A stretch of 56,825 nt of DNA, filler included, from Sluysia triapertura (taxonomy: Eukaryota), in NCBI GenBank assembly GCA_046118255.1. It is 4 parts of 4 records of this genome, joined end to end, with 100 filler letters (N's around TTAATTAATTAA, not from the genome) between each part and the next. Parts side by side here need not be neighbours in the genome. Positions count along the whole stretch, not along the records: positions 15,493 to 29,540 come from JBJNIA010007658.1; positions 29,641 to 45,048 come from JBJNIA010229123.1; 2 more parts are not named here. One strand, written 5' to 3'. The notes beneath the pieces are model-generated. The model ran no database searches, was not told the DNA's origin, and worked only from the letters and a program-made list of their open reading frames with translations. This document shows, in pieces, positions 13,432 through 38,632 of the stretch; the stretch's first letter is position 1; the number at the start of each line of letters is the position of its first letter. The position numbers and the translations under genes were made by a program.

Positions 13432-13810
13432 TGTGGTGGCCAACCCACAATTTAAGATTAAAAATAACTGTATTAAATAACCTTAACCACAACCATACTC
13501 ATTAACTATAACCATCACACAATTCGATTCATAAAACAACAATACACAATCATAACACTTTTCCAACTTACATTCACCAACGAAACAAACAAAGGTGTAA
13601 ATATCAACTAAAGAAAACATCAAATGTTTGGAACACAAATAAATAAATTAATTACTTATTATTATAACAACATATATTTTAACAATTCATATAAAAATTA
13701 TAAATTAAAAAAATAAAATATTTTTGTTTTAAAAATATAATTTAACTAAATAAATTGCGCCAAATTTTTAAACAAAAATGGTAAAGGTGTTTTTAAAAGG
13801 TCACCCACCA
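13432..13810 (+). mobile_element. Family A terminal repeat (TGTGGTGGCCAACC plus CA-rich tract), short copy
   Basis: Same 14-bp terminus as 16468, 27101 (rc) and 30575 (rc), with a one-mismatch version at 38632 (rc). Possible imperfect opposite end GGTCACCCACCA at about 13799-13810. Confidence 0.55.
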
Positions 13811-15392: not shown

Positions 15393-15492
15393 NNNNNNNN
15401 NNNNNNNNNNNNNNNNNNNNNNNNNNNNNNNNNNNNTTAATTAATTAANNNNNNNNNNNNNNNNNNNNNNNNNNNNNNNNNNNNNNNNNNNN
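15393..15492. other. Artificial contig linker
   Basis: N44-TTAATTAATTAA-N44, a six-frame-stop spacer identical to the spacers at 29541 and 45049. Confidence 0.95.
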
Positions 15493-15536
15493 AAACGAGA
15501 GAAAATTATTTTATCAAACCCATTACATTTTTTAGA

Positions 15537-15990: not shown

Positions 15991-17970
15991 TGGCCTCGTG
16001 TATTTTATAATAACGTTTCAAAAATGATTATAGTTATAATTTGCTATTACTCTAATAAAATGTTTTCATGTTATTTTTATTTTACTAGCCCTCAGAGGCA
16101 TATGAACAATATTTTAGTGTGCCTTAAGCACCAAATTTCCAATTATGTTAAATATAAAAGTTAATAATAGTTTTAATTTTTGTAAATTTTATAAATTAAA
16201 TAAAAACTTGTTTTTAATAAACGGAAACTTTATAGTAAATCAATCAATATTTAATTCAACAATAAAGGTATAAAATTATTTATAATTTTACGAGAATTAA
16301 TACTTATTAATTCCGAAATTTTAATATTTTAAAAAAGCTGATTTTGGAGGCTTCTTTAAAATAGCACATGAAAAATGGTAATTAAGGATCTTGTCTCTGC
16401 AAACATGAATCAAATTTTTCTAATCTATATAATATCTGAGATTGAATAGTTCGAAATAAGAATCGAGTGTGGTGGCCAACCTATTATCTTAATAAAATTT
16501 ATTAAAAATTTATTTAAATATATCTTAAATATTTTATACATTCTTTTTACATAAGTCATCAATATAACATGCAACCCAAGATCAACAACTTACATTTCTA
16601 AATTCACAATTTAATTCACTATAACTAAGATCATATCCTTTTGAACACCACACAACAACTGTTAAATTCTTCACAACCATTTTTATATCTTGTTTCTTTT
16701 TATATCCAACGAAATTAACTTCTATTTTGCAAAACATTTCAAATCTACCATTTACATTCAAAAATTAACATAAAACAATATTAAACTAAATCAACACATT
16801 CTACACAAAACCATACTCTCAGACATTTTAACATTCTCAGATTTACCTCTGCATTCATCCGCTAAAGTCAATTTAAATCTACAACCTTATAACATATAAG
16901 CCACGGTGACATTCAATATCATCAAATTATATTAAAAATTCATCCAAAATATTTTATTTTTCATCTCTGAACAATTCATTCAGAGTCACATTCGAAATTA
17001 ACTAACATACATCTTCAAAGCAATCCAAACATTCTAAATTCACGATCTTTTATTATTAAATTTTAACAACCAAACATGACCTTTTTTCAAAACACCAATG
17101 CACATTCATCACTCATTTTAACATTTATACTATCCTAAATTATTTAAGTCATAACCTTCTATACTATATTAACATCTTAAAACAATTTCATTTTTAGCAT
17201 TTTTAGTAATTAAATTTAATATGTCGAGAATAAAGGGAGAAGTTAAGAAAGATCGTGTGAATTTTTAGAAATCAAGACTTTGTGTTTTTGTTATTATTAT
17301 TATCACCCTTTTTATTTTTAATTTATTGTATTTTTCATTATTTTGATCAACTGAGTAGCTGCCATAATCAGCAATGACATTTTGATTTACATTTATAATT
17401 TCATGTCACCGTTGATGATGGTTTGTCATCACTGTGTATTTTAGTCGGCTGTAATTGTTATTGTCCTTTCGTTTATTACTATTGGTCATCCAACCAGAAC
17501 TAACATGACTGTTATCATTTTAACACCTCTGGTTGGATGACCAATCAAGAATTACAAGTAGTAGCGTTGAAAATTTGTATACTCAAATTAATCAAGAATT
17601 ATTTACTACCAAAAAAAATTTTAGAAAAATTACAGAATAAAATTTTGTATAATTTGCTTAGAAATAAAACTGATACAATAAATAATCAATTATTATGGAT
17701 ATCTCTACGTCTTCATGCATTTCTGACTATGATTGTTCTGAAAATAATAAAGATTATGATTACAAAGCTGACGATTATGAAGATTATGATTACAAAGCTA
17801 ACAATTATAAAGATGATGATTGTAAAGTTAACAATAACAAAAATGAAATAACCGTTGATTGCTCTGATGAAGTAATTAAAAATGTCGAATTAGTTAAAGA
17901 AGTTAAAGTTGAAGATGTTACCCTAGAACCAGTCAATGATTTGATTATTAATGACGAAGAAACGTTTAGT

Positions 17971-18125
17971 TTAATGGAAACAGATTTACATCGTATAATA
18001 TCATTCAAACAAGAATTCTCTGATGATCAAATTCGTTATTTTATGTATCAAATATTTTGTGGCTTTAATTACATTTATCCGTCTGCAATGATACGCGAGT
18101 ACTTGAAACCTGCTAAGATTTTGGA
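17971..18125 (+). pseudogene. MAP kinase (ERK/p38-type) subdomain V-VIb fragment embedded in an element ORF
   Basis: LMETDLHRIISFKQEFSDDQIRYFMYQIFCGFNYIYPSAMIREYLKPAKIL aligns with MAPK LMETDL..II..Q.LSDDH..YF.YQILRGLKYIHSA.V.HRDLKPSNLL. The catalytic HRD is lost. Confidence 0.85.
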
Positions 18126-18192
18126 ATGTCAAGGTCTGTTGAACAAATGAATCCAATACGGGTTTTATTATATACTTCAAGATGTTCTAAAG

Positions 18193-18726
18193 ATGGTACA
18201 TGAATTCCGACAATTAAAAAGGTTATTGCGTAATAATCCTATTTATAATATTAACGTTAAAGAACATATGTTTTTAGTAACCTTGAAAGCCTTCCAAGAA
18301 ATTATTTATATGTTAATTGGCGTAATCAGAAAAAGGTACAACGTATGCAGAATCAAATTGATAAAGTCTTCCTTTTACGAACAATCAGAGAACGACGATC
18401 AGAATGGTGATGTTAGTGACAAGTTTAATCATAGTTTTGAATGTATAATGCACGAATCCCAAATGTTATTAATAACACGTTTATTTAATCTGACTCTTTA
18501 TTCATTAAATAAATTAAATTGTTATGCAACAATAAAGAGTAACACTCTGAAAAATCATACTCCATCCAATGTATACTTGTTTCATAAAGGTAATATGACT
18601 CCTAAAGGTTTTATATTATGCATCCAAAATATCAACGAATTGTTTAAATTTAAAGAAGTTGATAAAAATAATGATTACGAACTTAACGATTATAAAATTA
18701 ATGACTATGAAGCTAACTATAACTAA
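18193..18726 (+). CDS. 177-aa ORF of unknown function within family A copy 1
   Basis: Long open frame for such AT-rich DNA, in series with ORFs 17695 and 18748. Probably part of a disrupted longer ORF. Confidence 0.35.
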   Translation: MVHEFRQLKRLLRNNPIYNINVKEHMFLVTLKAFQEIIYMLIGVIRKRYNVCRIKLIKSSFYEQSENDDQNGDVSDKFNHSFECIMHESQMLLITRLFNLTLYSLNKLNCYATIKSNTLKNHTPSNVYLFHKGNMTPKGFILCIQNINELFKFKEVDKNNDYELNDYKINDYEANYN

Positions 18727-18747
18727 TGTGATGATTACGAAACTAAC

Positions 18748-19305
18748 ATGATTGCCTTTTGTCCATTCGCCACAGTTAAATATGGCATATGTGTAAAGAA
18801 TGCAAGTCATTGCTGTTACGCCCACACAGTCTGCGAATTGAGGTCCACCAAGGAAAACGATTCAAGCTACAACTATCATTCTCTTAGAATTACCAATATC
18901 TTAAGTAGCCTCAAAGTAATTATTTATTATCCTTTTTACAATAACATTAATTTTCGTGATTTTTATTTAGGTGACGAACTAGTTGGATCAAGAGTTGGCA
19001 CATTCAGGATAAAATTAATAAACTTTGAATGTAATTTTAATAAATTTTTATGTGATTATCGTTCGTTTATAAATTTTTTTCTATGTCAAAATTCTCATCA
19101 CAACAAAGAATTAAGAAATGATAATTTGATTAAGATTTCAAATTTTCTTTTTAAATTCTATTTAAAATTATTTAAGAGTTCAATTATAACTCAAAATATA
19201 ATTAATCACAATAAACCACAACATCGAGTAGAAAATATTTTGAAGAATATTAATTTTATTGTGACCTTGAATAAAGAAATTGTCGGACAGTGTGATGTTA
19301 TTTGA
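18748..19305 (+). CDS. ORF with atypical CCCH zinc finger (C-x9-C-x6-C-x3-H)
   Basis: CPFATVKYGICVKNASHCCYAHTVCELR. It is in frame with ORF 18193 across one stop. Paralogous motifs occur at 25195-25260 and 34911-34976. Confidence 0.55.
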   Translation: MIAFCPFATVKYGICVKNASHCCYAHTVCELRSTKENDSSYNYHSLRITNILSSLKVIIYYPFYNNINFRDFYLGDELVGSRVGTFRIKLINFECNFNKFLCDYRSFINFFLCQNSHHNKELRNDNLIKISNFLFKFYLKLFKSSIITQNIINHNKPQHRVENILKNINFIVTLNKEIVGQCDVI

Positions 19306-19446
19306 AAGATGATCTTTTACAGAAATTTCTCAAGTTTTCTGTGTGTGATTATGCATTTTATTATTTATCTATGCATTCGATAGTTTTGTATGTTTATGAA
19401 TTATTAAATACTACTTTAAATGCAGTTACTAAGGGATTTCAAACTA

Positions 19447-19946
19447 TTGGGTTGGTGCATAAATTCGTACGGTTTTACTAGTTGCAAAGAAAACACAACA
19501 ACTTCTTGTTTCAACTGATTTGATTTATATTCATTCAGCTGAATTATCTATTTAAATCATTTTAGACTAACTTTCAATTTAATTACCCTCATTAAAATGG
19601 AATGTCATGTAGATAAAAATTAGCATTCCGGCATCTACTTCTTTTATATTTCCGTTCAATGTCGAACCATCTTTCTGGTCTCACATTTGAAAACGAAGAA
19701 GCAATAACATAAATTGAAGAATTTTTCGACCAAAAATGACCAACTTCTTCAAAAGTGGGATTGACAAACTGCCTGAACATGGAAGGAAGTGATCGATTGT
19801 GGCGAATAATATCTCACCGATTGAGACAGATATTTGTTTTTGCTAATGATTTAATAAATTCATTTTGTTATCTGGAATTTTTTGCATTGTTTTTATTCTT
19901 GATCAGTATGCATTTTTCATATTTGTAAAAAACCGCACCAACTTAA
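19447..19946 (+). mobile_element. Internally deleted mariner element
   Basis: TA|TTGGGTTGGTGC...GCACCAACTTAA|TA. The transposase start (MECHVDKN..RHLLLLYF) is fused directly to the C-terminus (RSMSNHLSGLTFENEE...FFKSGIDKLPE.WKEVID). Confidence 0.85.
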
Positions 19947-20894
19947 TATTTTTGAGATTCAAGGATTCCACAAACTTGAGGACATTCAATTAACAAATTA
20001 GAACAAATTTTTGAAGAAGTATTACAATAAAATATTATATCATTTCAGATAAAACTTAACTATGTCTAACCAAGAAGCACGGTCATGATTATATTTTATT
20101 ATTATTACTATTATTATAATAATTAATATTATTATTATCTCTTTGGCTTATTACATACACTTTGTGCATTTGCTAGATATTTTATTACTCTTATCTGCAC
20201 AATGAATGTGTTCGCCTATAGAATTAGCACACGGTTTGTACCTGTGTGATTTCTGAAGTATATTAGTATTGTCTGTGTGTCTATCTTATTCTTTAGTGAT
20301 TACTGTTATAAAATCTTATTAATCTTTATATTACTCAAATAGTTCGTGTCTAATAATCATTTTGGATTCTTAAATTATTTATGAAAGAACAAACACAAAG
20401 ACTCTTTGAAATTTATTACTCAAATGTAAAGATATTAAAATATACAAAATCAGATTCGAATAAAAATATCGAAATAAAATAAGAATGTTAAACCCAGATT
20501 TAAGGTATGTACAAAAGTGATATATTTTACCTCTATTTTAAGACAAATAAATCTTATTGTTTAAAAATGCGATGAAATCGGATAAGTTCCACAATAGTTT
20601 TCCTTTTAATCCACTTGATGATTAATTTGCCAAAAAAATTAATCACGTCGATCGTATTATATAACTTGAGAATTAATAAATAAATCGATTTCGACATCCT
20701 TTTATAATTTTAGTGAGCAGAAGCACTTCGTATAAATATTGATATTATTTAATTAAATAAATCACTTAATTTCAATTTTTAAAATAAACGTTTAAATAAA
20801 GTAATTAATTTAATAAAATAAACATACATTTGATTTTTTCATTTCCGCTATTACAAATATGTTTTGATTAATCAGTAAAATATTTTATATAATG

Positions 20895-21316
20895 TGTTAG
20901 TTTACCTACGATCCTAGATTTACGACTAGTCCGTAGGATTTGAATGTAAAGCAAAAATTTGCATGAGGTTATCTGTACTTATCTCGGTAATAGTTTTAAA
21001 CTTATTTATAAACTATACAGTATTTATAATTTTATAATTTTCTTTTATTCAGAATAGGATTAAAATGCAATAATTAATTCACAAATTAATTTTCCACTAT
21101 TAAAGTGAGGTAAGTCAAGTCGTTTATTTAAACAGAATTTTACTGAGATTCCTTATCCATGGAGCCTTTTATAATTTTGATTATAGTGGTAGATTTAGCA
21201 TAAGTAAAAATATATAATTTTATAACGTAATTAAATACTTAAAGTTTTCAATTAAGTTGCGAGGTTTTTATCCTCGAAATGCAAAATGATAATTCTGGAG
21301 AAGAGTTCACCTAACA
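20895..21316 (-). mobile_element. Family B solo-LTR-like copy
   Basis: On the minus strand it starts TGTTAGGTGAAC and ends with the CCTACG..CGTAGG hairpin followed by TAAACTAACA. Confidence 0.55.
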
Positions 21317-22689
21317 GAGACGTCTTTTATCTGGTCTATTAGGATTTTAAAATTTAGTCACGTAGTACTTAAAAGTGAACTATGATCACTCACGTAATCC
21401 CCAATTTAGGTTGGAATAAAAATCAAATTTAGATATTTTATAATATTTTGAGTTAGCCTTTTTACGGTATAACTTAGAATTTCGGATTTTAAATTAGCCT
21501 TTACGGTCTAATTATATCTTTTGATATTTTAAGATTTTTAGCTAGCCTTATTGCGGTCTAGCGTGGAAAATAATAATTTTATTTATTCACAAGAATAAAA
21601 TGATTCAACCTCAAAGTATATTACTAAACAATTATACAAAGAGTTATAAAAAGAAAAATTTATAATATAAATAAACAATTTACCAACTTAAATCAATATG
21701 ATTTAGTGGATTAAATTTTAAATGTATTTTAACTTAGCCTGTTACGGTTTAAGTAAAAGATTATCTAGTTTAAGTTAATTTTATATTCTCCCGGTTACTG
21801 TGAGAATAATAAAACCTATACAAAATATCTTACTTTCATGGGCATTGAAGAATTGTCGACGATTATATGGTTTCTAAAAATCTCACTAAAATTCAACACT
21901 TATATAGTGAATTTTTAGTCACCATATTTATTTTTCTTTTTTCTTTTTTAATCTAATGAAACAAATATATTTATTAATATTTTATAATTTAATTTATTTG
22001 AAACATTTATAATTAAAATAACATTATTATTGATTATTTATTTTTATTTAATTTATTTTATAATTTAGTTTTTTACTTAATTTAATTTTATAATTTATTT
22101 ATCAATTTGCTGTGGTTTTTACTGATGCCTAAATCTAAACCTTCGACAAAATGGAAAATTGAGCAGAGTCCGGTTACAGTAATCGTCATGTCTTAAAGAG
22201 GGCACTTTTGTAACAATATAAGTTAAGTAGAACGTATTAACCTAAACTGATAATTTAAATATGACAGGGTCCAAATTATAATGATTTAAGGTTCAATTAT
22301 TATGTATCAAATAAAATCACAAACGTCTAATAAAATTTTATTTCAAAATTACAAAAATTAAGTAACTAAAGTTGTTTATAAAATAAAAGATACAAAAAAA
22401 CAGAAGGATCAAAAATTACAATAGTTTAATATATCGTTAAAATTGACTAAATGTAATATTAATTTAAGTAGATTTTAGGATATTAACTTCCTTAAATAAA
22501 GTTAATATCAATATTAAAACAAACAAATTACTTTATTTATGGACATAAAATTGAATCTTGATCGTTGTCTCCAAATTCTAAAAAATTCCAAGATGCTCCT
22601 GTCGAATAGGTTTCCAAAATTGAATTATGGTGACGATTGATAGATTAAAAATGATGTTCCAAAAACTGCTGCACAATGATTTTAAAAAT

Positions 22690-23002
22690 TAGGATAATTT
22701 CAAAATGGCGATTTTCATTGTATTGATGCTAGTTTATATACTAGTCATCATCCAATGAAAATCGATGGAATGTTCTAGAATCTTCTATACTATTTTTAGA
22801 AGCTAATTTTATTTTTTAGAAATTTTATTTTCTTTTTTGGAAAATAATTGTTTTTAATGTAATTTTAAAGATTAACAAATGATTTTAAAACATTTTCCAT
22901 GATTTTATTTAATTTTCTGATAATTTTATATAGTTTTAAATAATTTTAAGGTGTCATTATGACATCTTAAAATTATTTTGTAGGGTTGTGATGACAACCT
23001 AA
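22690..23002 (-). mobile_element. Family C repeat copy
   Basis: Reverse-complement homolog of 6387-6700, ending TAGGGTTGTGATGACAACCTAA. Confidence 0.65.
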
Positions 23003-23865
23003 CTAATTAAAGATATTAATATAATATAATATAATAATTTAAAATAAAATCAAAAATAAAATTTTAACATCAAAAAGTTAGAATCCAATTCTCACAAAAT
23101 AATGGATTTATTGTCCGTTATCAGATCAAGATTATGAATTGTTTATCATGGATCATTTTACAATTTAATTAGTACACTGAATTTTAATGAAATTGAAACT
23201 ATACATGTTTTACGTTAGATCTATATTATAAAGCTCGATAAAAAGCAGTTCTAAAAATTATAACATATCAAACTAATTAATTCTATAAAAATCTGTTATG
23301 ACCTTTTTTTAAAAATATTTTTCAACAAAATATATAATAATGACTATTATAACGAATTTTACTAACGATCTTTTCTTGTATGATTTGTTTAAAGATTTTA
23401 CTATGATTGCATTTACTATTATAAATATGTAGAACTAATTCGAACTAATTTGAATTTGTGAATAAATCTTAAAATTCGATTAAACTAAAGATAATTGTAA
23501 GAATGAGTTTAATGCAGTAGCAATAGAATTCGAAAATTATTTTTCCCAAAAATCAATATCGATAAATTAATAATTCGAAGTTAAAACGATATTAGATTTA
23601 AAGGTTAATAAACTGAATAACCAAAATTATATTCAAAAATCGTATATTTATTTCTTAGTTTGTGTGATCTATTTATATAATTTATTGGGTTGACCTTGTA
23701 AAGGTCTTAATTAAATAAATTATATAAAACATAACTATTTGTTTTACGTTTATTTTATAAATCTTTAAATTATAAATTTTACATAAATCTTATTTGGCAA
23801 AAATGTTTTAAATTATAAATATAATCTTTAATTTTTATGAACATTACATATTTTACACATTTTAC

Positions 23866-23867
<2 letters not shown>

Positions 23868-23913
<46 letters not shown>

Positions 23914-23984
23914 TTTATTTTTATTATTAATTTTGAACTCTGAGAAATAATAATTATTATTTAAACGTTGAAATTTTATTTTGA

Positions 23985-24036
<52 letters not shown>

Positions 24037-24129
24037 ATTATTATTTGTTTAGACTTTGAACTCTGACAAAATTATTTTTTAGACTGAACTCTGACACATT
24101 GGACACATCTTGACTACTACTACTACTAC

Positions 24130-24185
<56 letters not shown>

Positions 24186-24190
24186 TTTTC
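23868..24190. repeat. Compound (ATT)n/(ACT)n microsatellites interleaved with GAACTCTGA units
   Basis: Three long ATT runs and three gaactctga copies are visible. Confidence 0.9.
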
Positions 24191-24229
24191 ATTATGTAAA
24201 AATTAAAATTAAAAGTAGTTTTTTATAAA

Positions 24230-24540
24230 AGAATTGAATTACTTTGTATGCATTCTATATTTTATGCACTTCGTATTAGATTTAACTGAAGGTATAATCT
24301 TTCGTCAATATAAATCTTTTCTATTGACTTATTCTGTAAATATTATTTGTACTTTATCTATTACGTTTGTGTTATCTGGAAGTGTGAACTCGAATACTCG
24401 TCTCCGTTATTCGAGATAGAAGTGCTTAACGAGAATCATAATTCTTCAGAGTTTATTTATCTGAATTCTTGTATGTTTTTCCATACCATTGAAGAGATTT
24501 TATTTTGATTTATTAAACTTATTTAATTCGCTTTGTAAAA
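24230..24540. repeat. Interspersed repeat homologous to 39440-39720
   Basis: Shared block attacgttt..ttatctg.aagtgtgaa.tcgaatactcgtc.c.gttattcgagata. Confidence 0.7.
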
Positions 24541-24599
24541 TTTTAATTATAATTAAACATATTGTACTCGCAAAACAATGATTGTGACTTTATTTTAGG

Positions 24600-27101
24600 G
24601 GTAGCAGAAGCACAACTGAGAAATTTGATTAGTTTATTGTAGGGAGAAATGTGCGAAATATCGACCTAATTGTGGTGATAGTGTTATGTTTTTATAAATT
24701 GTATTGAAATTTAGCACGAAATTGTTATATTTAGATGAATTTATTAAAAGACTTAATTTATTAAAGTTTGATATCATTAGGAAGTTTTGGACTATAAAAA
24801 TGTAATCATATTTAATTAAATTACTTTCAACTTTATTAATTATCAAATAATTACAAAAATAAACACTTAATTGAACTTTATTGTTTACTAAAGAAATACA
24901 AAAATTTACAAGATTTACATTTAAATTTTGCCGAGGTTTAATCGTCTTCTGAGTATGCTTCACTATATCGAAAATTGATGTTTTTAAAGTCCTAAAAAGA
25001 TATAAGTAGTATAAATATAAGATTCGATTTATATAAGGACAAATTACATTAAAATCTAATATTACTTTAAAGTTCTGTTTGTTGCTCCAGTCCTATGGCG
25101 ATGATGTAATACTTAATAATAAGTTACTGATCCTTCGATGATGATCATTGAGATACGAAGTTAAACTAAACAGGTGTCTAATTTCGAAAGCTTCGTGACC
25201 ATAGATATAGTTTCTGCCATATCGGGAACACTCACCATTCTGCATTCTTCCGTATAAACATAAACCACTTTTATAATATTTGCATTCATGAGCATAAGTT
25301 TGTAAATATTTACACGAAGATATGTTGTTACTATAATAATGTTCTAAATTGTCAGTCTTTGTTTTTACTTTCGTCATGTCTTTTACTAATGGCATAATTT
25401 TGTTTGTAATGACATACTAGTCAACATCAATGGGTACATGTATACTTTCATCTATTTTAATCACTATATAACTTGGAGCATTAAGATGATTGGTATCTAA
25501 TCTTTTTATTTGAAAGTTATGAGATATCTCAATGAATTTTCTTGTATCATCTTGTTTTGCATTTTGTTTGCCTATTAATTTTAACATACAATTTGAAGGC
25601 AAAGGGCGAATTTCGATTCTATGATTGGTTCATTAATGAATTCTAATATTTTTAATACTAATTCATCATATTGTTCGATCAACACAAATTTTAACGAAAT
25701 ATTATCCAAAAGTTCATATTTAGATACCATAGTTTGCATAAATAATTACTTTATACTAAAATAAATTTAAAATTGATATAAGTTCTTAAAACTTTAATTC
25801 GGATTTGATAAAATAAAATATAACCTGAATTGTTTTTTTATTTTCACCATAAAACTTCTAATATTTTACCACAGAGTTAAATATTATAGTCTAAATATTC
25901 GCAAACAAAATTACAATTTTGTTTTTACCTAATGATAAGCATGACACTCGTTTAATAAAATTTTCTAATAAACATCAACTGAAATTGGTAAAATTAATTT
26001 GTTCAAGTAATGACTGTTAACAAATTATGAAAACGAGTTTTTCCATGATTGGGCGTCCAATTAGATGAGGCAAAAATATAAAGTAGAAAGGCAATTAATT
26101 GGACGTCCAATCAATTAAAGTAATCTACACATGGTAACTGTCACCAGTTGACAGTTTAATACAATATAATGATTTAGTTTAATACATCTGTCAACTGGTG
26201 AAGACAAGATTAGATAACTAATCACGAAAAAGATAATAGTACATAATAATGAATAAAATAAAATAACAATAATAATAATAATGATAAATTAAATAAAAAC
26301 ATAAATTTCTTTCTTTGATTATTAAACGAGCTTTCTATTTATATGTACTTTTATTTAATTATCATTCTTAATATAATATTAACTTAATAAAAATTTCTGT
26401 TTTTAGAAGTCATAGAAACTAAATGTTAAAGGATTGTAAACTTCAAATGCTCTGGATTAATCTTTCACGTTTTCTATAATACTTTAAGATATCATTGTGA
26501 TTCTAATGTTGTAAGGTAATGTTTAAAATGTTTTAGCTGAGTTTTAAAATGTAGATTGATAGTTTTGACTGAAGGCAAAATTTGGACGTTGAAAACTTGT
26601 GAATTGAGATGTTTCTAATAAGATTGTGGTTAGGATGTTAATAGATTGTGGATTTAAAATGTTTAAGATATTAAAAATGATTTCAGTAAATCTGAAAGAA
26701 ATGAAATATAGCAACGGTTTTGATACATTCTAAAAGGTAATTATACAATGTTAAAAATGTCCTTATGATTGTACTGTTATGGAACTATGAATAAAATGTT
26801 TTTCATGAATTTTTTAAATGTATGTTATTAATTCTGAAAGTGAATGTGATTTTAATATTATTATGTTATAAAATAGGAATGTTTTGAAAAGGTTAGAATA
26901 AGATTTTAGTGAATGTAAAGGAAATAAAACATGAAAACGGTTTTGATGAAAAAATTGGTTAAATGTTATAAAATATGATTTTATGTGCAAAATGTTGAAT
27001 TAAATTAACGATGTTTTGAGTTAATTTTTTAAATATATATTTGATGACTTGTGATGTTGATTATAATTTAATAAAATTTGTTAAATAGGTTGGCCACCAC
27101 A
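24600..27101 (-). mobile_element. Family A element copy 2
   Basis: Terminus at 27101, tract 26340-27080, hairpins at 26141-26201 and 26047-26112, then a disrupted ORF from the ATG at 25739. Confidence 0.55.
25093..25739 (-). pseudogene. Disrupted family A ORF (about 210 aa) with CCCH-like finger
   Basis: MQTMVSKYELLD... / ...YYKSGLCLYGRMQNGECSRYGRNYIYGHEAFEIRHLFSLTSYLNDHHRRISNLLLSIT, with one frameshift and one stop. Colinear with 34620-35070. Confidence 0.65.
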
Positions 27102-27409
27102 CTAATTAATCTGCTTAGTAATACGTATCAAGTTAAATTTACTGTCAAGTTCATTCTAACGGTTCTTAGTGTGTCGCGGTTTATTATAGAAGGTTTTAAT
27201 TACACTGCTATCGTTGACAAGCGATGTGCACTGGGCCATTCATCTCGCATTTTGTCTTGTCCAATTCAGAAGATTCAGAAATATTCATATTCTTATTTCA
27301 CAATTTAGTCATAATCATTAGGATTGTACTTACTAATCAATCCATATTGATTTTTATTACAATCAATGAATGAAATTTACCACTTTTACCACTAATTCAT
27401 TTATTTTAG

Positions 27410-27635
27410 AGCCTTAAAAGTCGGAGACCCTTTAAACACTGATACCTTCATGGGTCCTTTAGTTTCCAAGGAGCACATGGACAAGGTCTCATCATATCTA
27501 ACGAAAACAACGGGAAAAGTCGTGTGTGGATTCGGTGTGGATGATTTGTGTCTTTCTGAGGATTTACGAAAGGTTATTTTTTCAGACCTAAAATCTCTTC
27601 GCATTTAAAATAATCGAATGAGATATGTCAGAACT
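27410..27635 (+). pseudogene. Aldehyde dehydrogenase (ALDH8A1-like) fragment
   Basis: After a ttttag acceptor it reads ALKVGDPLNTDTFMGPLVSKEHMDKVSSYL...VVCGFGVDDLCLSEDLRK, then frameshifts into GYFFRPKISSHLK*SNEICQ. The ORF track lists only the antisense frame. Confidence 0.8.
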
Positions 27636-29469
27636 AAATCTAAATCTAACGTATAATAATAGTTCCAGTAATAATGTAGGAATGATATATTAATGATATA
27701 GTAATAATACATCAGCTCCGATACCTTCGTCAACCAAACTTTAACTTTTAAAATAATAAATTCATTAATTATTTAAGTAATTGTAAATTATTATTATCAT
27801 TGTAATTTTTAATTTCTTTCAAATATTAAAACTGACAGCTGTCATCATTGTTATTAAATTTTATCTTTATTATTTTTAATTATTATCAATATTTATTATT
27901 ATTGTTAATTTTTATAATTTTTGTTATTTTTTATTATTATTTTATTACTTATTAATAATTTATTTGTGGACAGTTTAAATATTGAAAGAAATTTTACATT
28001 AAACCTGATGAATAACGTTATTAACGAATAAAAAAATGATGAATTCTTCATAAAAGATATGCATGTTAATGAAGTCTAATGTTCTACGTCAATGTGTCAT
28101 TCAGTTATTTGTAGAACTGCTTATGATATTCTTAACTTTCACACAGAAGACCTCAAATTAATAAAAGAGATAGTGAAGTCGACACTGTAACACTTTTTAA
28201 TCAGCCATTGTGGTTAATGCCAGATATTAAAACAAGATAATAAACAAGAAATACATCGAGGTTCAACGTATGCAGTGCAAATAGTAAACGTGTCGTAAAA
28301 TGGCTTTAATTTATGATACGAACAAAGAGTTAACTCGACACTCGATAATTTTGATGCTTTTCACCGACGAACTCACTAAGATTTTGAGTTATTCGATTTA
28401 CGATCATACGATTATTAATATGGTTCACAAAATTTTAAAAAGTAGACGAATATTCTCTACGAGGAGTGAAAACTATTTGAAATATTATTTCGCGAATTTT
28501 TCGGTGGATAATGTTTTCTATTGGTCCATTATCTTCATTATTTTCTGAATCGACAAAGCCACTTGGATATCTACTATCAAGGAGGGGATTAGAGTTAGGG
28601 TTTCCCAGTAACACTAGCTCTATTTGACACTGCTTTACATTTGCCACAACATGTGTATAGTTTCCTAGGTAAGCTTTTATTAAGATTATATCTAAATTAA
28701 TTCGAACTTTGCTTCTAATAATGATCGAGTTTCATCAATTCTCATCCTAACCTTGATGTTTGTAAGTCCACAACATTGTGAGGTAATTGATATATTTTAC
28801 TTCTGCTGCTTTGTAACCATGACTACGCAATTGTATTGAGTCTGAGTATTTGTGGAAGTTATGGCCGACTCATAATCATCATGACAAATATATTTAATAT
28901 TTACCAAAATTGATTTTAGAGAGATTAATTGATATAAAAATTACTCTGACGTTATTCGATAAATCAGGGAGGATGAAACAAAGAGAACGAGAATAACACA
29001 AAATTTTACAGAAGAAAAGAGTAAATCACAAAAGGAGATAATTTATCAGCAATTCTTACTTTGATTTTTTGTAATCTGCTCCGGCAAGGTATACATGTTC
29101 GGCTTGGCATCTTCAATTGGTTAGGGTTAGATCACTATTGTCATGCATGATGTTTGTTGATTTAATTGAATAGCATAGCTTTACATTGTCATTGAGTACA
29201 TTTGACTTATATTCATCAATGGCACGATCCGATTGGTCATTGAATCTTTCATACATTTCGATAGAAAATTTTTGATTTTTGAAAATTTTTCATTTGCATC
29301 TTTGTGTAGTATTACTCATTATATATATTGAAAGAAACTATGTATTGACATCTTACGATACAGTATTTTGTAAATTTTTATATTATACTTATGACAATAC
29401 TAACTATTTTTATTATTATCATTATCATTATTTATATTTTCATTTAATAATTGTTACAGAGGTACCGAA

Positions 29470-29540
<71 letters not shown>
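29470..29540. repeat. (AAT)n microsatellite at a contig end
   Basis: Pure AAT run up to the gap. Confidence 0.95.
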
Positions 29541-29640
29541 NNNNNNNNNNNNNNNNNNNNNNNNNNNNNNNNNNNNNNNNNNNNTTAATTAATTAANNNN
29601 NNNNNNNNNNNNNNNNNNNNNNNNNNNNNNNNNNNNNNNN
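29541..29640. other. Artificial contig linker
   Basis: N-TTAATTAATTAA-N, 100 bp. Confidence 0.95.
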
Positions 29641-29985
29641 TCTTTAATCTGTTATTTTGATTTAGATCCAAATCGTGTATTTTATTTAATGCTTGATGTG
29701 TTAGAATGGCCCCTAGAATATACACAGATATTTATTGATTACCTTAAAACTAATAGACAAGATATATGCGCCCTAATTCGAAACAAATCAACTATAGATT
29801 GCCCACCTAAACTATTTTATAAATTAAATCGTATTTTTGTTATGAACAATCTAATAAAACTTAATAATATTTGTGAGTATTTACTACCAACTGAGCAAGA
29901 AACTAAGAGAAAGCTCAACAATATTTTAATTCTTTTAAAAGAACCCACTACACCCTTATGTAACCTCTTAATGGTAAAAAATTAA
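29641..29985 (+). pseudogene. THOC2: THO complex subunit 2 N-terminal region fragment
   Basis: SLICYFDLDPNRVFYLMLDVLE...PPKLFYKL...NLIKLNNICEYLLP matches THOC2 [22 protein letters not shown]...TPSSLY...NLIDLDDLYVHLLP. It is cut by the gap on the 5' side and abuts the family A tract on the 3' side. It could instead be a true exon. Confidence 0.72.
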
Positions 29986-29989
29986 AAGC

Positions 29990-30575
29990 AAGTGTAATTT
30001 TAAATGTTACTTGATATTTTTAAGTGAAGTAATGCTTTTGTCTGAAGATAAGCTTAAGTAATGAAAAGTTATGATTTACTTCTTTCGAAATAACATTGAT
30101 GTTTGAAGTGGATTGTAAATGTATACTGGTGTTTGAATGAAAAAAATGTTTAGTTGTTAGGATTTAATGATAAAAGATTGTGAATTTATAATGTTTGGAT
30201 TGCTTTGAAAATGTCTGTTGATTAATTTCGAATGTGATTGTGATTGAACTGTTAAGAAATGAAGAATAAAATGTTTTAGATGAATTTTTAAATGTAATTT
30301 AATGTTTTTGAATGTACTTGTGGTTTGAATGTTATGAGATTGTGGGTTTAATTGATTTTAACGGGTGAAGATGTTTTGGTGGATGTAAAAGAGATAAATA
30401 TGGGAATGTTAAAATGTTTAAGAGTGTGGTTTTATGTACAATGTGTTAATTTAGTTTAATGCTGTTTTCTGTTGATTCTTGAATGTGATTTGTAGATTTT
30501 GAGAATGATTATTAGGTTATCGAAAGTTTATGTAATTTTTATAAAACTCATTAGGGAAATAGGTTGGCCACCACA
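29990..30575 (-). mobile_element. Family A terminal tract copy
   Basis: Ends AGGTTGGCCACCACA and aligns in reverse with 16468-17100 (for example tttggattgctttgaa vs ttcaaagcaatccaaa). Confidence 0.65.
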
Positions 30576-31089
30576 AATTCGATCACCTAAATTCAAGTCA
30601 AAGCAGTAGTTCGTCTGGCGTTCAATCCAATCAAATCCCAAACCAGGTCCAGAAATCCCGGTATGAAACCTTCGGCTTTTCGTTTTCCAATACTCCTCCA
30701 GTTCAAAAATCCATGATTAAATGTACTCTGCGCATTCGTGATGGACGCATTGGCAGAACAGTGGGAAGTTCCAAATTACTCAGAACGAAAACCCACGTGC
30801 CTCAGCCCGAACCTCTACCTAAACTGGCCACAGCACGATATCTGGGAAATACAACCAGGATTTCAAAACACACAAATAGGTCTTAAATCATCTAAAGTGT
30901 AAATAATAAATCTTAAAGAAAAATAATATGTATATTAATAAATAAATAATAATCGTAAGAAAAATTCAGTAATTTTGTAAATTTTTGTAAATTTATTTAA
31001 TAAAAGTAATAATAATTGTAAAAAATATAATAAATTAATCTTTATGTAAAAATGAATATTTATATTTAAATTATAAACCATAATAAATT

Positions 31090-31245
31090 AATCGTCATTA
31101 AATAAAACGGATGTACATTAAATTGGAATATTTATATTATAATTTATAAATAATTATTTTGTTTATAATCAAAATCGTCATTAAATAGAACGGATGTACA
31201 TTAAATTAGAATATTTATATTATAATTTATGAATAATTATTTTAT
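31090..31245. repeat. About 83-bp tandem duplication
   Basis: aatcgtcattaaata.aacggatgtacattaaatt.gaatatttatattataatttat occurs twice. Confidence 0.85.
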
Positions 31246-31425
31246 TTAATAACGAAAAAGGATATTGTGATTGTTTATTAAAAACTAAACGGATATTTGT
31301 ATTACCAAAGTGTACAACGAGAAAAAGATATATAAAGGTTTGAAAAAATATTAATAACGATAATAAGAATTTTTAGACTTATTTTAACGCACAATTATTA
31401 GTTGTTGAAAAATTTTAGTCAATAA

Positions 31426-31584
31426 TTCGATTTTGGTAAAGATATTTCAATTTTGGTAAAGATATTTCAATTTTGGTAAAGATATTTCGATTTTGGTAAA
31501 GATATTTCGATTTTGGTAAAGATATTCCGATTTGGTAAAGATATTTCGATTTTGGTAAAGATATTCCGATTTGGTAAAGATATT
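31426..31584. repeat. 19-20 bp minisatellite (TCGATTTTGGTAAAGATATT) x8
   Basis: Head-to-tail units with no spacers. Confidence 0.92.
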
Positions 31585-32639
31585 GGTGAAACAAATTATT
31601 CGGTTACACGACTCGATCTACTCAATTTCGGATACTCTAATATTCAAACAAAGATTACGTAAGCTATTTAGTTATAAGATTTATGACCCTATTCTTCACG
31701 GTCTTAATATCTGACGTAAAATCTAAATAGACATTTTTTAATAGGACACCCACAAGTACTTTCTGGGTTAAAATCTTACTTAAATTTGTAATATATATAT
31801 TATTATTATCATTAAATTGCTCATATTATTTAAAATTTTTATTGTTCCTAAAATTTTATTGTTGTTTTATACCTTTTTATATTTAATAATAAAAATTCCC
31901 ACACTCAGTGTTTTGTTGTATTATTGAATAAGAAATTTGTAAAATTTAGCTGAGAGAAAAATAATAATTGTGATAAACTTAGACATTAAATAAAAGTTTT
32001 TATTTTTAAAAGATTAGAAGTCAATTAAAGAAAGTTAAAGAATTTTTTGAATTTGTTAATAGTTGTAAAAATATAAAAGATTTAAAAAAGGAGTAAAGAT
32101 ATTTAAGTACTAATAAGGATATAGTTTAGAATTAATTATTTTCTTTTGAATACATTATCAGACTAAAATATTAGATAAAAGTTTAACCTCAAAAAATACA
32201 AAAACATTCTAACATCAGAGCATACAGTACTGACCCTCTTTAATTCATTTGACAAAGCTTTAAAATCCTACGCAAACGTCCATTATAGGTAAACAGTTTA
32301 GCGTAGGCGGACCCAAAATATAAATTTAATATTTTTTATAATTGTTCGAAGAGTTAAGGAAAACCGAACACAACTTATACAATATTATAACCAACAATTA
32401 TATAATGACAAATGGATAATCAGAGCAACAATAATTTATCGTCACACTACTAAGCAAAATTGAAACAAATGAAATATCAAATACTAAAAATTTTTGAATA
32501 TATTTTAAATTAAATTATCCCCTCGCATACGCACGAGGGCAAAACATTTAGTTCAGAAAATTTTACGGGCCGAAAACAAAAAATATATATGTATTTCATT
32601 TTTTATTTGTTTTATTGCACAAACTGATTAAAAAAAGTA

Positions 32640-33375
32640 CAAAAATTTAATATTGTTTCGACGAACACTAACTAATTTCATAATGTCAAGTCTTATGTTT
32701 TGAGATAATGATGTTCTTAATGTTAACCTTGATCTATGTGACGATTTATTGATTTTTAGCAAAGAAAAAAGCTGCTCGCACAAATAAGTACATCCGAACG
32801 TCCTATAAATTTTTGAAGCAAACAGTCCATTTCATTAAAGTTTTCAGGAAAATACGAATAAAACTCGGGTACCTACTTCGTTATATTTTTCTTGTAGTGC
32901 CGCATTGCATTGAATTTCTACCAACTCTATGTGCACTTTGCTTCTTGCTTTTTCAGCATTATACGAAAATGGGGCATTGAACAACAAAGAATCTTTTTCA
33001 CACGCTTGAAAGCTGTGAAATCTTATTTCAATTTGTAACAACAGATCGTCAAAATATGAAGTATATTTGACAAAATTACAATTAATATTCCATTCTTTAT
33101 AACCTTTACAAGCGGGAAAATGAACTAAATCACAATTTTTTAGTTGTTTTTTCCAAATTGCGAGTTCCAATTGAAATGCCTTAATAAACTCTCACATTTG
33201 TGTGACAGCTATATTTAGACTCTAAAGTTTTAAATTTAACTCATTTAAATGCCGCGTAATATCGGTTATAAAACTTAACTCCTGCATCCAATTTTTATCT
33301 TTAAATTATTCAACTGACTGATCTTTCATTTCTAAGAACGTTTTGATTTCATTACGAAGTTCCCAGAACCGCATC
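32640..33375 (-). mobile_element. Degenerate hAT transposase C-terminal half (Buster/SPIN/GTF2IRD2-like)
   Basis: RFWELRNEIKTFL...FITDITRHLNELNLKL...HFPAC...IELVEIQC...FGCTYLCEQLFSLLKINKSSHRSRLT, including the hAT dimerisation motif, with stops and frameshifts. Confidence 0.88.
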
Positions 33376-33654
33376 ATTTTTTTGTTGCTGTGGTCATTAA
33401 TTTTAAATCAAACTGCCAGCGGTTGACAGTTAATTAAACAAAGTAGTATCAATAGTATTTACTGATAGCTGGTTATCGTTATTACTAACTCTGTGCTTCC
33501 ATTGGTTGTCCAACCAGAATTAACATTGCTATCTTGTCTCACTTTCTGATTGAACGATTGATTTTCATTAGAGAGCTATTTTTAGAATTATTTTATTATT
33601 TAGACAACATTTTGTAAAAATTTTTATAGATTTAGATTATTATATTTTGAACAG

Positions 33655-34515
33655 GTGTTGAAAATAAAAATAAAACTACAATAGTAACTGATGAAATCAT
33701 TGATATAGTTCAAGAAGAATGTAATAGATTAAATAATTCTACCGTTGTTAAGAGGCGCAGTGTTATAGATGGATTATTAAGAGAAATTTTCGAATTTATT
33801 GAGCAAGAATGGGCAAAATTACGGCAAATCAGTGATCTAAAACCTTTTATAGAAAAAGTTTGTTTTCTTAAATTTTATATTGAATATAATGATGTTGAAA
33901 TTAAAAGCAATAATAAATTATATCGTAGTTGTGTAAAATTATTAAATCATGCTGTAAAACGTCCAGATATGTTTAGTTGGACTCATTTACAACACAATTT
34001 TTGCGTGGAAGATGAAACTGCATTAACAAATATTCTTTACATGGGTGATGAGCATGATGTAAAATTTTTTGATGAATTTTTAAATAATTACGATGGTAAA
34101 TTGCACGGAAATTTTCCTTTTAATTTTGATGAAAGATTATTTAGTGTTGTAATCTTAATGATAACCATGATTGGAAAAAATTATTAAATTGTAAAGTATT
34201 AGATCGAAATACTACTGAATGTCCAACTATAATATATAAAACTGTTGCAGAGGTATTTGGTCATGAACATGATTATGGCAAATTAATAAATCGTTATTTA
34301 GATACTTTTAGTTCAAATGAACACGTTGCAGACAAAGTGACACCGAATTTTGATAATGAGTCAGAAATGACGAAGTTAGATGTAAAATTTAAAGATAACA
34401 TAAAAGTATCGAATACCGTAGTAAGTAGTAAAACATTAGGGCACAGTCGTGATGAAATAACCCATAGATTCCGATCATTACTCTATCGTCGCCGTTTTAA
34501 GTACGTATCCATGCA
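33655..34515 (+). pseudogene. EZH2: Enhancer of zeste (EZH1/2) N-terminal half, frameshifted, no CXC/SET domain
   Basis: Open frame from 33657 (..IEQEWAKLR..VKLLNHAVKRPDMFSWTHLQHNFCVEDETALTNILYMGDE..NYDGKLHG). A shifted frame follows with a SANT1-like segment, TPNFD and THRFRSLLYRRRFKY (compare SLHSFHTLFCRRCFKY). Confidence 0.85.
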
Positions 34516-34599
34516 GAACACCGTGTTCAATGTATAATAAGCCATCCTATTGTCATACAGTTATAGTTATCAATGAATGTTGTATAAACCACAAAGAGA

Positions 34600-35075
34600 C
34601 AAAAATATCAAATAAACAAATGATTGAAGCTTGCGAATTATTAGATGCAATTCAAGAATTATCGATGAAAGTCGGACTGGATCAGGAAATTAGTAATAGA
34701 GAAATGAAGTTAAATTCTACAATTCCTTTTCGTACAAGCCTCAAAAATTAGATTTAGAATCTCAAACTTTTACTCTGATAAAGTTGCACAAACAGCTAGA
34801 CTTCATCTTTGATCTTGATGTTTTTACAACCAGAATTCAAATGATTCCATCAGTGTTGTACACAACAAAAATGGACAACAATCTTCAATCTTATGATTAA
34901 GTCCGGTTTATGTCTATGCGGTACGATCCAAAGTGGAAAGTGTTCAAGATTCGGCAGCACTTGTTTGTATTCACATGATGCGTGCGAATCGTAGATATTT
35001 TTGGTTGGACGTCAGACTTGATAAATCATCATCGTAGAATCCACGAATTGATATTATCTTTGACGATACTTCGGC
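34600..35075 (+). pseudogene. Disrupted family A ORF with C-x9-C-x6-C-x3-H finger
   Basis: QMIEACELLDAI..., KLDLESQTFTLIKL...DLD, KSGLCLCGTIQSGKCSRFGSTCLYSHDACE and FGWTSDLINHHRRIHELILSLT all align in order to 25093-25739. Confidence 0.65.
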
Positions 35076-35593
35076 TTACAATGCACCAAACATGCTTTTT
35101 TATTCTTCTATTGTTATTATTATTACTATAACTATTTATTTATATCCTTTATTTTTCTTTAGGAGTTCAAAAAGTCTATTAATGAGACATAATCAGGAAA
35201 TAATCGACGCAGAACAAAATTTAAGTTTACATGTTAATTTTTGTCTTTGTTTTATGTATTATAAAATAAAATTAAAAATAAAATATTAAAAATAAATGAT
35301 ACTAAAAAATTAGTATATAAATATCAAAGTAATTTAAAATTAAAATTTATAAATATTAATTCACAGCTGGTTTTGCAGAATTATGCAAGTCTACATTAGT
35401 GTTAACTGGTGTTGTTAAGAAAAATCAAACAATGAATACCAAATCAATGGTAGAGTTAATGTCTCAATGTAATGTGAACCACAACCACCGAGATTTTTCA
35501 GATTACCCCTTGTCATGTTTTCCAATTTTAGATAGAGCCCCTGCTATTCATTTTGAAAGATTTAAATTTCTGACAGTAGTGAAGTACCTATAG

Positions 35594-35828
35594 CAGTGAT
35601 TCCCAAAGTGGTCTATATCGAGCCCCAGGAGTCGCTCTATGGAGCGAGTGAGACGCATATAAAATGCTCCGAGATCAAATAAAAGCAGTTTTCGACCGAC
35701 GATATTAATTATATTAATAATATTATATTTTTATAATTTTTTTGCAATTTTTGAAATTTCTTGCCACTGACCCCCAATTTTTCTCACTTGCAGGTTTTCA
35801 TCGACATATACCACTTTGGGAATCACTG
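35594..35828. mobile_element. hAT-type MITE
   Basis: Perfect 18-bp TIR CAGTGATTCCCAAAGTGG / CCACTTTGGGAATCACTG. The 8-bp TSD is not preserved. Confidence 0.75.
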
Positions 35829-36899
35829 ATCCAGAATTAAAACTTCCGTCGTATATTTGTTGATAAGACAGTTAAATGTGTTCAACAGGAAAGTTTCAAT
35901 GGTTTGTTTTAGTAATTATTTCATTTACTGTCTACCATCGGTTTGTCGAGAATATAAAGGAAAAATTAAAGTTGAATTTATTTTTACATACTTTTGATGC
36001 GAGTTTAACGAATTAGATCAAATACATTTGTAGTATTTTTATTGTGACAACAGAAAATAAGGATTAATTATAACAAATTAAGTTTTTAAATTATACTTAA
36101 TAGAGATCGAATAAAATATATTTGGACAGAAGACAATAACAATAATTACAACATTGTATCGAAATCACACGTTTAAGAAATATATGTTAAAAACTTTAAA
36201 AATTTTAAAAACTATATAAATCTTTATTTACATTCTTCGTATATCGCTAAATGTGACGTTGAAATCAATCTACCCTGGTTTATATTATTTTTGATTGGAA
36301 CATTAACTTATTTTAATAACAAAACACGTTACTATAATTTTTCTAAATTTAGTATCACATTTTAAAATGTTACCAAATTAAAAAGTAATTGTAAGAAAAA
36401 AAACTACAAAAATAAAAATTCAATAGTGAAATGGAATAATAAAGTTAATTTATTTTAAATGAACTTCAATTATAAACAATTGAACAGTGTGCATTATTAA
36501 GAATTGTATAGAAAAAATTTAGCTTATTTGAATTAATATTTTTATTGTTTTGCAACAAGTAGTTATACGTATATATTTTAGGTAATGACAATAATTAAAA
36601 ATTTTAATAAATTTATCTATTAAATTTTTATGTATATAATGTCATGAATTTGTTGAAAAATACTATTTATATGTTTCAATATGAATGTTTTTAAGGTACT
36701 TATTTAAATCATATGATTACAATTAGTTCAAGGAATCATATCAATAAGGGGTTATGTAACCATCACAACATTTATTCAGCGATTTATTAAGTATTTTAGA
36801 ATTAATAAAACTATTATAGATAAGATTTAAATTTTTATTAAAGAGAATAAAATTGTTAAAAACTTCTGGTTTAGTTATTGCAAAATTTTTATACCTTAA

Positions 36900-38632
36900 T
36901 TTATTTAATAATAAATACATTTAAAGGAAAAATAACTAAAATAAGATCTAAGGCATATATTATAAACTAAATTTATTGATTTAATAAAAATTTTCTTCAT
37001 AAAATGAAATTCAAATGATAGCAAATGTTGATGCCGCATTGAAAATATTACGATCCGTACGCTAAAATGGTATTCAGACATATAAGGACACAATGAATAA
37101 AAAATGATAGTAATGAAATAATAAATACAAAAGACAAAGATATACCTTAAACGAGTAGACTCGTGGCGAATATGACGTATAACTGAGTTAGGCATAAACA
37201 TATTTGAACCAATTTAATGCGAGTGGTAGGTGATTGAAAAATCCACTGTTTGAAGGAATTTACTGGAAAGGATTGCATTATATAATAAATGGTGAGTTAT
37301 GTTATTGAACTAAATTATAATTACATGTATCGGCTGAACTGATATAATTGATGAAATAGTTTCATTAAATATATTGTTAAGATCCAATGTTAGAAAATCT
37401 GGAGAAGTTAGATAAGTATGTTAGTTTTTGGTTCAATATTCAGTGCAGAAGATGCTTTTCTAAATATCATATAACTAATAAAATCGTCATCATTTGCTTT
37501 CTAAGCATTGGTTTTACAGTTATTACATTGTTCTTGATCTACATTATGTCCACATTTATTTGTTTGAAATGATTTATATTCACTTTGATGTTTTTTAACT
37601 ACGATATCTTTTAATACATTAGTTCTTCGAGAAATATTATCAAAATCTTTTCTTAATTCAATGAAATCAGTGGAACAATTCTTTAAATCATGAGAAATGG
37701 CTTTATAGCTACTACTGGATACTTCATTGATTTATTATTCATGATATTTAATCGATCGAGTATATGACTAATGCTTTGTTCGATTTTATAAATGAATTCT
37801 GACATTAGTTTTTTTGTTAATCTAATTTTATCATTGGTTTTTAAGCTACTAATTTTTAATTTACTGTACGTATATGATGATTCCCAAAATTTTGTAGTAA
37901 TAATAGTTTTCTGATAGTTTTTGTGTACAAAATTTTTAAAAGTGATTATTATTGTGGCATACAAATTGTGATCAATTTTTATTGGCCAATCAAAGCAACT
38001 TCTTGTTGTTGCACCACTTTAATTAAAATTTTTGGTGTACAGTCAGAGTATCAGTGAATGATACACTGACTAATTATAAGATGTCATTTGTTGACAGAAA
38101 AAAATTTTAAATAATGACAAACTGTCCAGACTGACAGTTAAAATAAATGTTAATAATATATTAATAATTAATAATGATAATAATAAAATGTAATAATGTA
38201 AATAATAATAATAATAAAATAAAATAACAATGGCAATAATAATAAAATAAAATAAAAATGACATAAATTTCTTTCTAAATATTATTTCTTAATATAACAA
38301 TAATAATAATTATGAAATAGAAATAAAAATTCATAAATTCATATCTTTTTCTTTACTTTTCCTTTAGATAATTTTCTTTTATTCTTGAAGTTCAAGAAGG
38401 AGATGTAAAGGTTAAGTGAGAATGTAACGAAGATTGTGAAGAAGTATAAAAGGAGAGTAACAATGTAGTTAAAAGTGTTAAAAGAAATTTCAATTAGTTT
38501 ACTGCTTTAAACTAGATTTAAAATGCAAATTTAATTATTTTTGATGTTATGAATGTTTTAAGTGTTGTAAAAATGTGATTTTTAGTGTAAAGTAATGAAT
38601 TAAAATTTTGAATGATAAAGTTGGCTACCACA
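36900..38632 (-). mobile_element. Family A element copy 3 with degenerate unknown ORF
   Basis: Terminus TGTGGTAGCCAAC at 38632, then a tract, an agaaagaaatttatgt block and ctgtca/tgacag hairpins at about 38040-38140. Long but disrupted frames follow at about 37200-37980. Confidence 0.5.

Follow-up and report, generated by a model that had tools for sequence, protein, structure and literature searches.

Unkempt-like zinc fingers behind differing gene fragments in dispersed elements of Sluysia triapertura, possibly solo long terminal repeats

The capture of host gene pieces by animal transposons is already known, most cases being small fragments in a single copy or cargo lying between the parts of a long terminal repeat (LTR) element. 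LTR elements, which mostly make 5-bp target duplications and have TG...CA ends (PMC6839031), capture and shuffle mRNAs in animals via template switching (PMC5131818), and those of bdelloids bear extra open reading frames expressed from spliced messages (PMC5408684). Animal Pack-TIRs number 370, with a median cargo of 224 bp, and are mostly single-copy (PMC8277862). Zinc fingers 1-3 of the protein Unkempt, of the CCCH class (three cysteines and a histidine), bind A/U-rich RNA as a cluster, with a dissociation constant of about 5 uM (PMC4358403, PMC12136788). Here we describe dispersed elements of 2.4-2.8 kb from Sluysia triapertura, found in a joined stretch of 56,825 nucleotides of assembly GCA_046118255.1 (the window), which carry a single CCCH finger downstream of gene fragments that differ from copy to copy. 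We judge the chances to be about evenly balanced that this finger is a captured Unkempt finger forming the constant end of a chimeric frame, in an element that would most likely be a solo LTR.

Three element copies, designated u1, u2, and u3, encode one finger each, and the six tandem CCCH fingers and RING of whole Unkempt are not present. Translations at all three places agree with the original prediction of repeated C-x9-C-x6-C-x3-H fingers: the spacing is exact and the four ligands are intact in u1 (18760..18825, plus strand; Unkempt-finger-3 type) and in u2 (34911..34976, plus strand; followed by a stop at 34992-34994), and in the minus-strand copy of u3 (25195..25260), located where 107 codons are free of stops (25096-25416), Tyr replaces the third Cys. 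A six-frame scan of the window revealed no further motif with this 9-6-3 spacing and none with 8-5-3 spacing, and no fourth finger was found in the window by DNA and protein profiles built from the three copies. In third-order Markov simulations of the window, one 9-6-3 motif arose in 2 of 150 and two arose in 0 of 150 (mean 0.013). The flanks proposed for the finger are only partly shared: the lead-in YKSGLC is complete in the minus-strand copy alone (IKSGLC in u2, MIAFC in u1), and only two of the three copies keep the E(L/I)R tail in frame, u2 stopping 5 codons past the His, with its downstream homology running on in another frame.

The spacing had been called atypical and the finger related to TIS11/ZFP36, and neither description was supported. 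Unkempt finger 3 has this 9-6-3 spacing and aligns with the finger without gaps (PDB 5ELH), and the spacing is already included in the published CCCH definition C-X4-15-C-X4-6-C-X3-H (PMC2478707). The finger type is therefore already known, and the proposed new type falls away. Among the nine PDB matches of a three-copy profile, Unkempt 5ELH ranked first (expectation value E 3.6e-4), ahead of TIS11d (1RGO, E 0.023), and tristetraprolin had E 3.4; only Unkempt aligned without a gap between ligands and over the whole finger, whereas the TIS11 alignments were gapped and covered half of it. The u1 finger alone matched residues 99-130 of 5ELH without gaps (13/32 identical, E 0.02), a stretch we take to be finger 3, since three stretches of that chain were matched, and from the general layout of the protein. 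In Pfam, the family zf-CCCH (PF00642) gave no match for the u1 and u3 copies at E up to 10, and all three copies matched zf-CCCH_UNK (PF25427), with 28.1, 21.9, and 18.0 bits (E 1.6e-4 for u3 and 2.8e-3 for u2), or 30.5 bits for a trimmed u1 copy (E 3.5e-7); all three scores of these decayed copies (E 3.5e-7 to 2.8e-3) lie under the curated cut-off of 31.1 bits. Further copies were sampled in the contigs of one public run, aligned at 80% likeness; the run is possibly the source of the window itself and thus not independent, and since contig depth does not equal copy number, contig counts are given alongside. At 18776 (70 contigs, all of the depth) and 18803 (58 contigs, 98% of the depth) the other copies have a different base, and the codon they read gives Unkempt's residue.

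A search of 1.84 billion protein representatives returned 22 matches, none below 1e-10. The best single domain among them is the 9-6-3 finger of an Unkempt-like protein, P0126 (25.6 bits), and the profile also aligns the u3 lead-in with the end of the preceding finger of P0126 (hhalign 89.8%). Eighteen of the other 21 are generic multi-CCCH proteins, which together with the resemblance of the tail to TIS11d and tristetraprolin, and with the Atlas leads for the u1 copy, all below 0.9 and all PF00642 clusters, would speak for a TIS11/ZFP36 descendant of a new finger type in which both loops had grown longer; the generic proteins score high because of their many repeats, however, and per domain the 9-6-3 Unkempt-like finger leads. 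Given in addition the gapped half-finger TIS11 alignments and the missing PF00642 matches, such an origin is highly improbable, and the finger is likely, judging from its sequence, to be a captured copy of Unkempt finger 3. The remaining three matches (P0136, P0139, and P0142) are repetitive non-CCCH sequences and were judged spurious. None of the 22 matches carries the segment that follows the finger, so that no relative of the element's own protein was found among the 1.84 billion representatives. Searches of a word index of longer proteins found no relative of the finger profile (170 candidates) and none of the P0126 finger region, viral and metagenome contigs gave none either (34 and 124 pattern matches, 0 confirmed), and the Atlas gave no usable match for the u3 copy.

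The original prediction placed the finger in a repeat, and this is borne out by the element ends and the target duplications of two copies, features that, like the MAP-kinase and EZH cargo described below, the prediction did not include. Element u1 (16468..19223, plus strand, 2756 bp) has TGT...ACA ends, with 6/7 terminal bases inverted, and is flanked on both sides by the 5-bp duplication TCGAG (16463..16467 and 19224..19228). Element u3 (24671..27101, minus strand, 2431 bp) has TGT...ACA ends with a perfect 7-bp inverted end and the 5-bp duplication ATTAG on both sides; its two ends show homology to u1, and the surroundings of its finger to u2. The chance expectation per 3 kb for the two perfect duplications is 3e-5 and 1e-4. 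The inverted end measures only 7 bp, identity dropping to 8/15 and then 13/30, and no longer inverted or direct terminal repeat was found at the ends. Element u2 (33400..35490, plus strand) is identified by homology to the u1 hairpin region described below and to the 3' half of u3 (E 9e-28); it has several frameshifts and an approximate right end, and its left end is missing, neither a left-end motif nor a matching duplication having been found for it. An 18-base left-end motif starting with TGTGG occurs five times in the 57 kb (13432 plus, 16468 plus, 27101 minus, 30575 minus, and 38632 minus), and two of these five left ends, those of u1 and u3, are paired with a right end that matches and show a perfect 5-bp duplication. 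The positions 16468 and 27101 were also considered as the two ends of one large element, which was rejected because a separate right end and duplication belong to each.

The copies share an order of parts, namely a C-rich left segment, hairpins with ATTGG/CCAAT, cargo, finger, putative intron, and an AT-rich end, with u2 lacking the left segment. That segment (16468..17170 in u1, plus strand) is C-rich and G-poor and is common to u1, u3, and the further copy u4. The hairpin region of u1 holds a perfect 18-bp inverted repeat (17481..17545) with ATTGG/CCAAT at its outer ends and a fold more stable than any of 200 shuffles (0/200, z = -4.8); related segments occur in u2 and u3, the one in u3 forming a hairpin (26046..26113) with paired ATTGG/CCAAT (z = -5.0) and the one in u2 folding no better than shuffles (z 0.02). 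Rfam gave 0 matches in the window and the hairpins fit no known RNA family; the hairpin/CCAAT segment is likely, from its sequence features, to be a promoter region. Homology of the three copies extends past the finger, the DNA being alignable for ~300 bases downstream; an H-x-R-I-x-x-(I/L)-L segment lies in this part, as does a GT-AG stretch whose phase u1 and u3 have in common. The putative introns are 55 nt long in u1 (18916..18970, plus strand; phase 0 to the finger frame) and 74 nt in u3 (24992..25065, minus strand; likewise phase 0). An AATAAA starts 14 nt before the right end of u1.

The existence of many more copies is evident from the contigs of the public run. At the left of u1 the summed depth is 26-32 just outside the element and 291-17,755 in bins that span the end or lie within the element, and upstream of 16468 the loose ends of 81 contigs are unrelated; at the right, depth falls from 163 to 36 across 19227. 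The left end of u1 is more deeply covered than the right, and 58-70 contigs cover its finger. As the flanks in the 81 contigs are unrelated (agreement 0.43), the left motif was rejected as a tRNA primer site.

Upstream of the finger the cargo differs by copy, a MAP-kinase piece in u1 and an EZH1/2 piece in u2. The decayed MAP-kinase fragment (17872..18126, plus strand) matches MAP kinases in the PDB (E 4e-10) and Pfam Pkinase (E 1.6e-4). A second u1 piece (18151..18654, plus strand) has no Pfam match and a weak resemblance to USP25 that is not significant (E 0.87). In u2, a frameshifted fragment of the N-terminal part of EZH1/EZH2 (33780..34507, plus strand; EZH1 E 2.5e-16, EZH2 E 2.5e-15) is followed further along by a weak match to Ezh2_MCSS (E 0.023), 110 codons away. 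The MCSS domain of EZH begins near residue 257 and the 110-codon spacing fits that of the protein; if so, the gap leaves no room for introns, which suggests that the EZH cargo came from an intron-free source. In the PDB, EZH-like frames two and three had no match, and neither had the upstream cargo of u3.

In u1 the pieces and the finger form one chimeric reading frame (17695..18915, plus strand), which runs through acidic repeats, the MAP-kinase piece, the second piece, and acidic repeats again into the finger, and is interrupted by stops at 18148-18150 and 18724-18726. These are 2 stops in 407 codons; in 2000 base shuffles, even the frame with the fewest stops of the three never had under 17, and the u3 frame has 2 stops in 189 codons versus at least 4 in shuffles. 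A coding origin accounts for the openness inside each piece, and we estimate the probability that a frame is shared by chance over the two or three junctions at about 4-11%. Arrays of 15-bp acidic repeats lie on either side of the 0.83-kb cargo block of u1 (17743-17846 and 18655-18748). Four contigs join across this block, hinting at copies without it, on short sides that may be repeat artefacts.

None of the three copies of the window is intact: u1 has two stops, u2 has frameshifts and the stop after the finger, and u3 has stops and the lost Cys; they are likely to be dead as judged from these lesions. This bears on whether the fingers might be part of a functional host gene family, specific to its lineage, that lies among repeats, or whether the cargo might have arrived by local break repair without transposition. 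The long near-open frames, the same-phase putative introns, and the promoter-like hairpins would fit host genes, as would 14 contigs that have, in their loose-end letters, a different stop-free stretch where u1 has the stop before its finger. Yet all three copies carry stops or frameshifts, the complete copies each have sharp ends and their own 5-bp duplication, and variants of the MAP-kinase piece in 21-24 contigs place this cargo in 20 or more contigs, so that it must have spread after capture; we regard host genes or break repair as improbable.

Past selection, which the original prediction drew from the conserved spacing, is only hinted at: identity of the finger declines along the codon positions in every pair (15/11/8, 12/11/8, and 17/15/10, each out of 22), and the corresponding tests are not significant (p = 0.12, 0.30, and 0.056). 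Among variants of the u1 subfamily (40 of 61 rows) seven fall in the finger, none of them in a ligand codon, and their split into 4 non-synonymous and 3 synonymous gives no power. Tests of ligands against other residues (p = 0.0096 and 0.024) are biased, the motif having been chosen by its ligands, and were not counted. From these sequence comparisons, past protein-level selection is plausible.

The ends of u1 and u3, TG...CA with a target duplication within the 4-6 bp range, are as in LTR elements. Under the solo-LTR reading, an ancestral element would have captured part of an unkempt transcript, host mRNA pieces would have been gained by template switching, and later lineages would have added other pieces upstream of the finger. 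The captured pieces would have been amplified together with the element, an integrase-type enzyme inserting and spreading the units and the hairpin/CCAAT segment acting as promoter. Parent lineages might have produced a fusion protein with a finger able to bind zinc and, probably, AU-rich RNA weakly; as Unkempt fingers 1-3 act as a micromolar cluster, a lone finger would bind weakly at best. The window shows no gag-pol and no LTR pair, as expected if the copies are solo LTRs.

Besides the PF25427 scores under the cut-off and the non-significant selection tests, several observations weigh against this reading. Of the five left ends, three lack a downstream duplication that matches, and two of these three sit within 2 kb of a contig break. 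A length of 2.5 kb is large for an animal LTR. Neither the five left nor the two right ends showed paired LTRs, an internal region, a primer-binding site, or a clear purine tract, and the 150 + 20 scanned frames of the window contained no integrase or reverse transcriptase. The intron-like stretch on the finger's strand is retained in u1 and u3, a poor fit with an RNA intermediate of the finger's polarity, and in published LTR capture the cargo lies between LTR parts, not within one LTR (PMC5131818).

The same Unkempt-derived finger and cargo could instead travel in a non-autonomous cut-and-paste DNA transposon of Pack type, mobilized by a Ginger2/TDD-like integrase-related transposase, a carrier we consider possible and somewhat doubtful. 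A DNA route is compatible with the kept intron-like stretch and with the absence of an LTR pair from the window, TGT ends and 4-5-bp duplications are known in Ginger2/TDD (PMC2836005, PMC10045372), and GingerRoot carries gene fragments, some from two genes, with the transposase mostly lost (PMC6839031). The inverted repeats of such elements, however, measure about 40-300 bp (PMC2836005) against 7 bp here. Ginger1 targets CCGG/CCGT, and animal Ginger2 makes 4-bp and GingerRoot 6-bp duplications (PMC6839031, PMC2836005), and GingerRoot cargo keeps its introns (PMC6839031), whereas the EZH cargo looks intron-free. A KolobokP solo LTDR was rejected, as it needs RR...YY termini and inverted ends of 11-18 bp (PMC9587614), in contrast to the TG...CA and 7 bp found here.

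The window (GC 20-31%) contains other features that touch the element copies. The left-end segment u4 (30000..30575, minus strand; 75% identity to u1 over 486 bp) is cut by a contig break, and adjoining it on the opposite strand is a decayed THOC2-like piece (29641-29898, plus strand; E 0.0034), which may or may not be cargo. No finger was found at the left-end motifs u5 (13432..13449, plus strand) and u6 (38615..38632, minus strand), the latter being accompanied by hairpins (z = -4.4) and an intron-like stretch. To the right of u1 lies a very high-copy small element (19445-19945), with loose ends on both sides in 83-84 contigs; its ends look mariner-like. At the expected site of the u2 left end is a frame (32847-33191, minus strand) without a Pfam match, presumably a hAT transposase remnant by its appearance, and just beyond u2 is a small inverted-repeat element (35594-35830) with a second copy near 2308-2581. 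N runs at 15393-15492, 29541-29640, and 45049-45148, each around a 12-base AT-only spacer, look like artificial contig joins, so pieces across them may be unrelated; u1 and u3 lie on one piece and u2, u4, and u6 together on another, and a further N run spans 42427-42562.

An importin-alpha-3/4 exon of 234 codons (51886-52590, plus strand), 65-78% identical to the animal proteins in the 120 matches listed out of 2417, puts the host among animals, with no close relative among those 120. Likely host exons also include an aldehyde dehydrogenase (27396-27608, plus strand; E 7e-7), a START domain (44875-45048, minus strand; E 0.003), and an acidic 165-codon frame (8840-9334, minus strand). Long inverted repeats of ~80% identity (48149-48840 and 50739-51176) enclose a simple-repeat-rich stretch and are probably another transposon, and a young tandem repeat with a 20-bp unit occupies 31422-31584 (8.2 copies, 93% matches).

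Literature searches, with most subscription journals outside their scope, gave no report of Unkempt capture by a transposable element and none of non-autonomous chimeric elements with short ends and 5-bp sites, and a search by title in part of the listings gave no match on cargo within LTRs or CCCH fingers in retrotransposons. It is conceivable, and in our judgement rather unlikely, that the element is a mobile exon-shuffling cassette consisting of promoter, constant Unkempt-type finger, and 3' end, into which host domains (MAPK, EZH2, perhaps ubiquitin protease) are swapped in frame ahead of the finger, and that it still includes intact, translated members holding these domains on RNA. New fusion proteins would arise by an uncommon route if a constant RNA-binding-type finger were joined, in a family with a 7-bp inverted end and tens of copies, to exchangeable in-frame parts of genes for chromatin and signalling. 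Such a family might also be a source of small RNAs directed at the parent genes, and it allows selection on transposon cargo at the protein level to be tested directly.

Compared with known systems, the finger shares with Unkempt finger 3 (5ELH, PF25427) the gapless 9-6-3 spacing (u1 10/22 identical from the first Cys to the His), the YYK-x-G lead-in in the u3 copy, and the LRS tail in the u1 copy; Unkempt differs in its six tandem fingers in two clusters and its RING (PMC4358403, PMC12136788), where a single finger and a short segment are found here. The tandem fingers of TIS11/ZFP36 (PDB 1RGO, 1M9O) belong to the same CCCH class and have a similar H...ELR tail, but differ in the 8-5-3 spacing, the tandem pair, and the weaker gapped match. 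As for the carrier, LTR-mediated animal retrocopies (Tan et al. 2016, PMC5131818) likewise contain host pieces, sometimes of at least two genes, that were re-amplified after capture; their cargo lies between LTR parts, whereas here it lies inside one TG...CA unit with one duplication and no gag-pol seen in the window. Ginger2/TDD, GingerRoot, and Pack-TIRs (PMC2836005, PMC6839031, PMC8277862) resemble the element in their TG ends, short duplications, captured fragments, loss of the transposase, and occasional multi-copy coding cargo, and differ in their inverted repeats (~40-300 bp, as against 7 bp), whereas in the Sluysia element a variable cargo precedes a constant finger.

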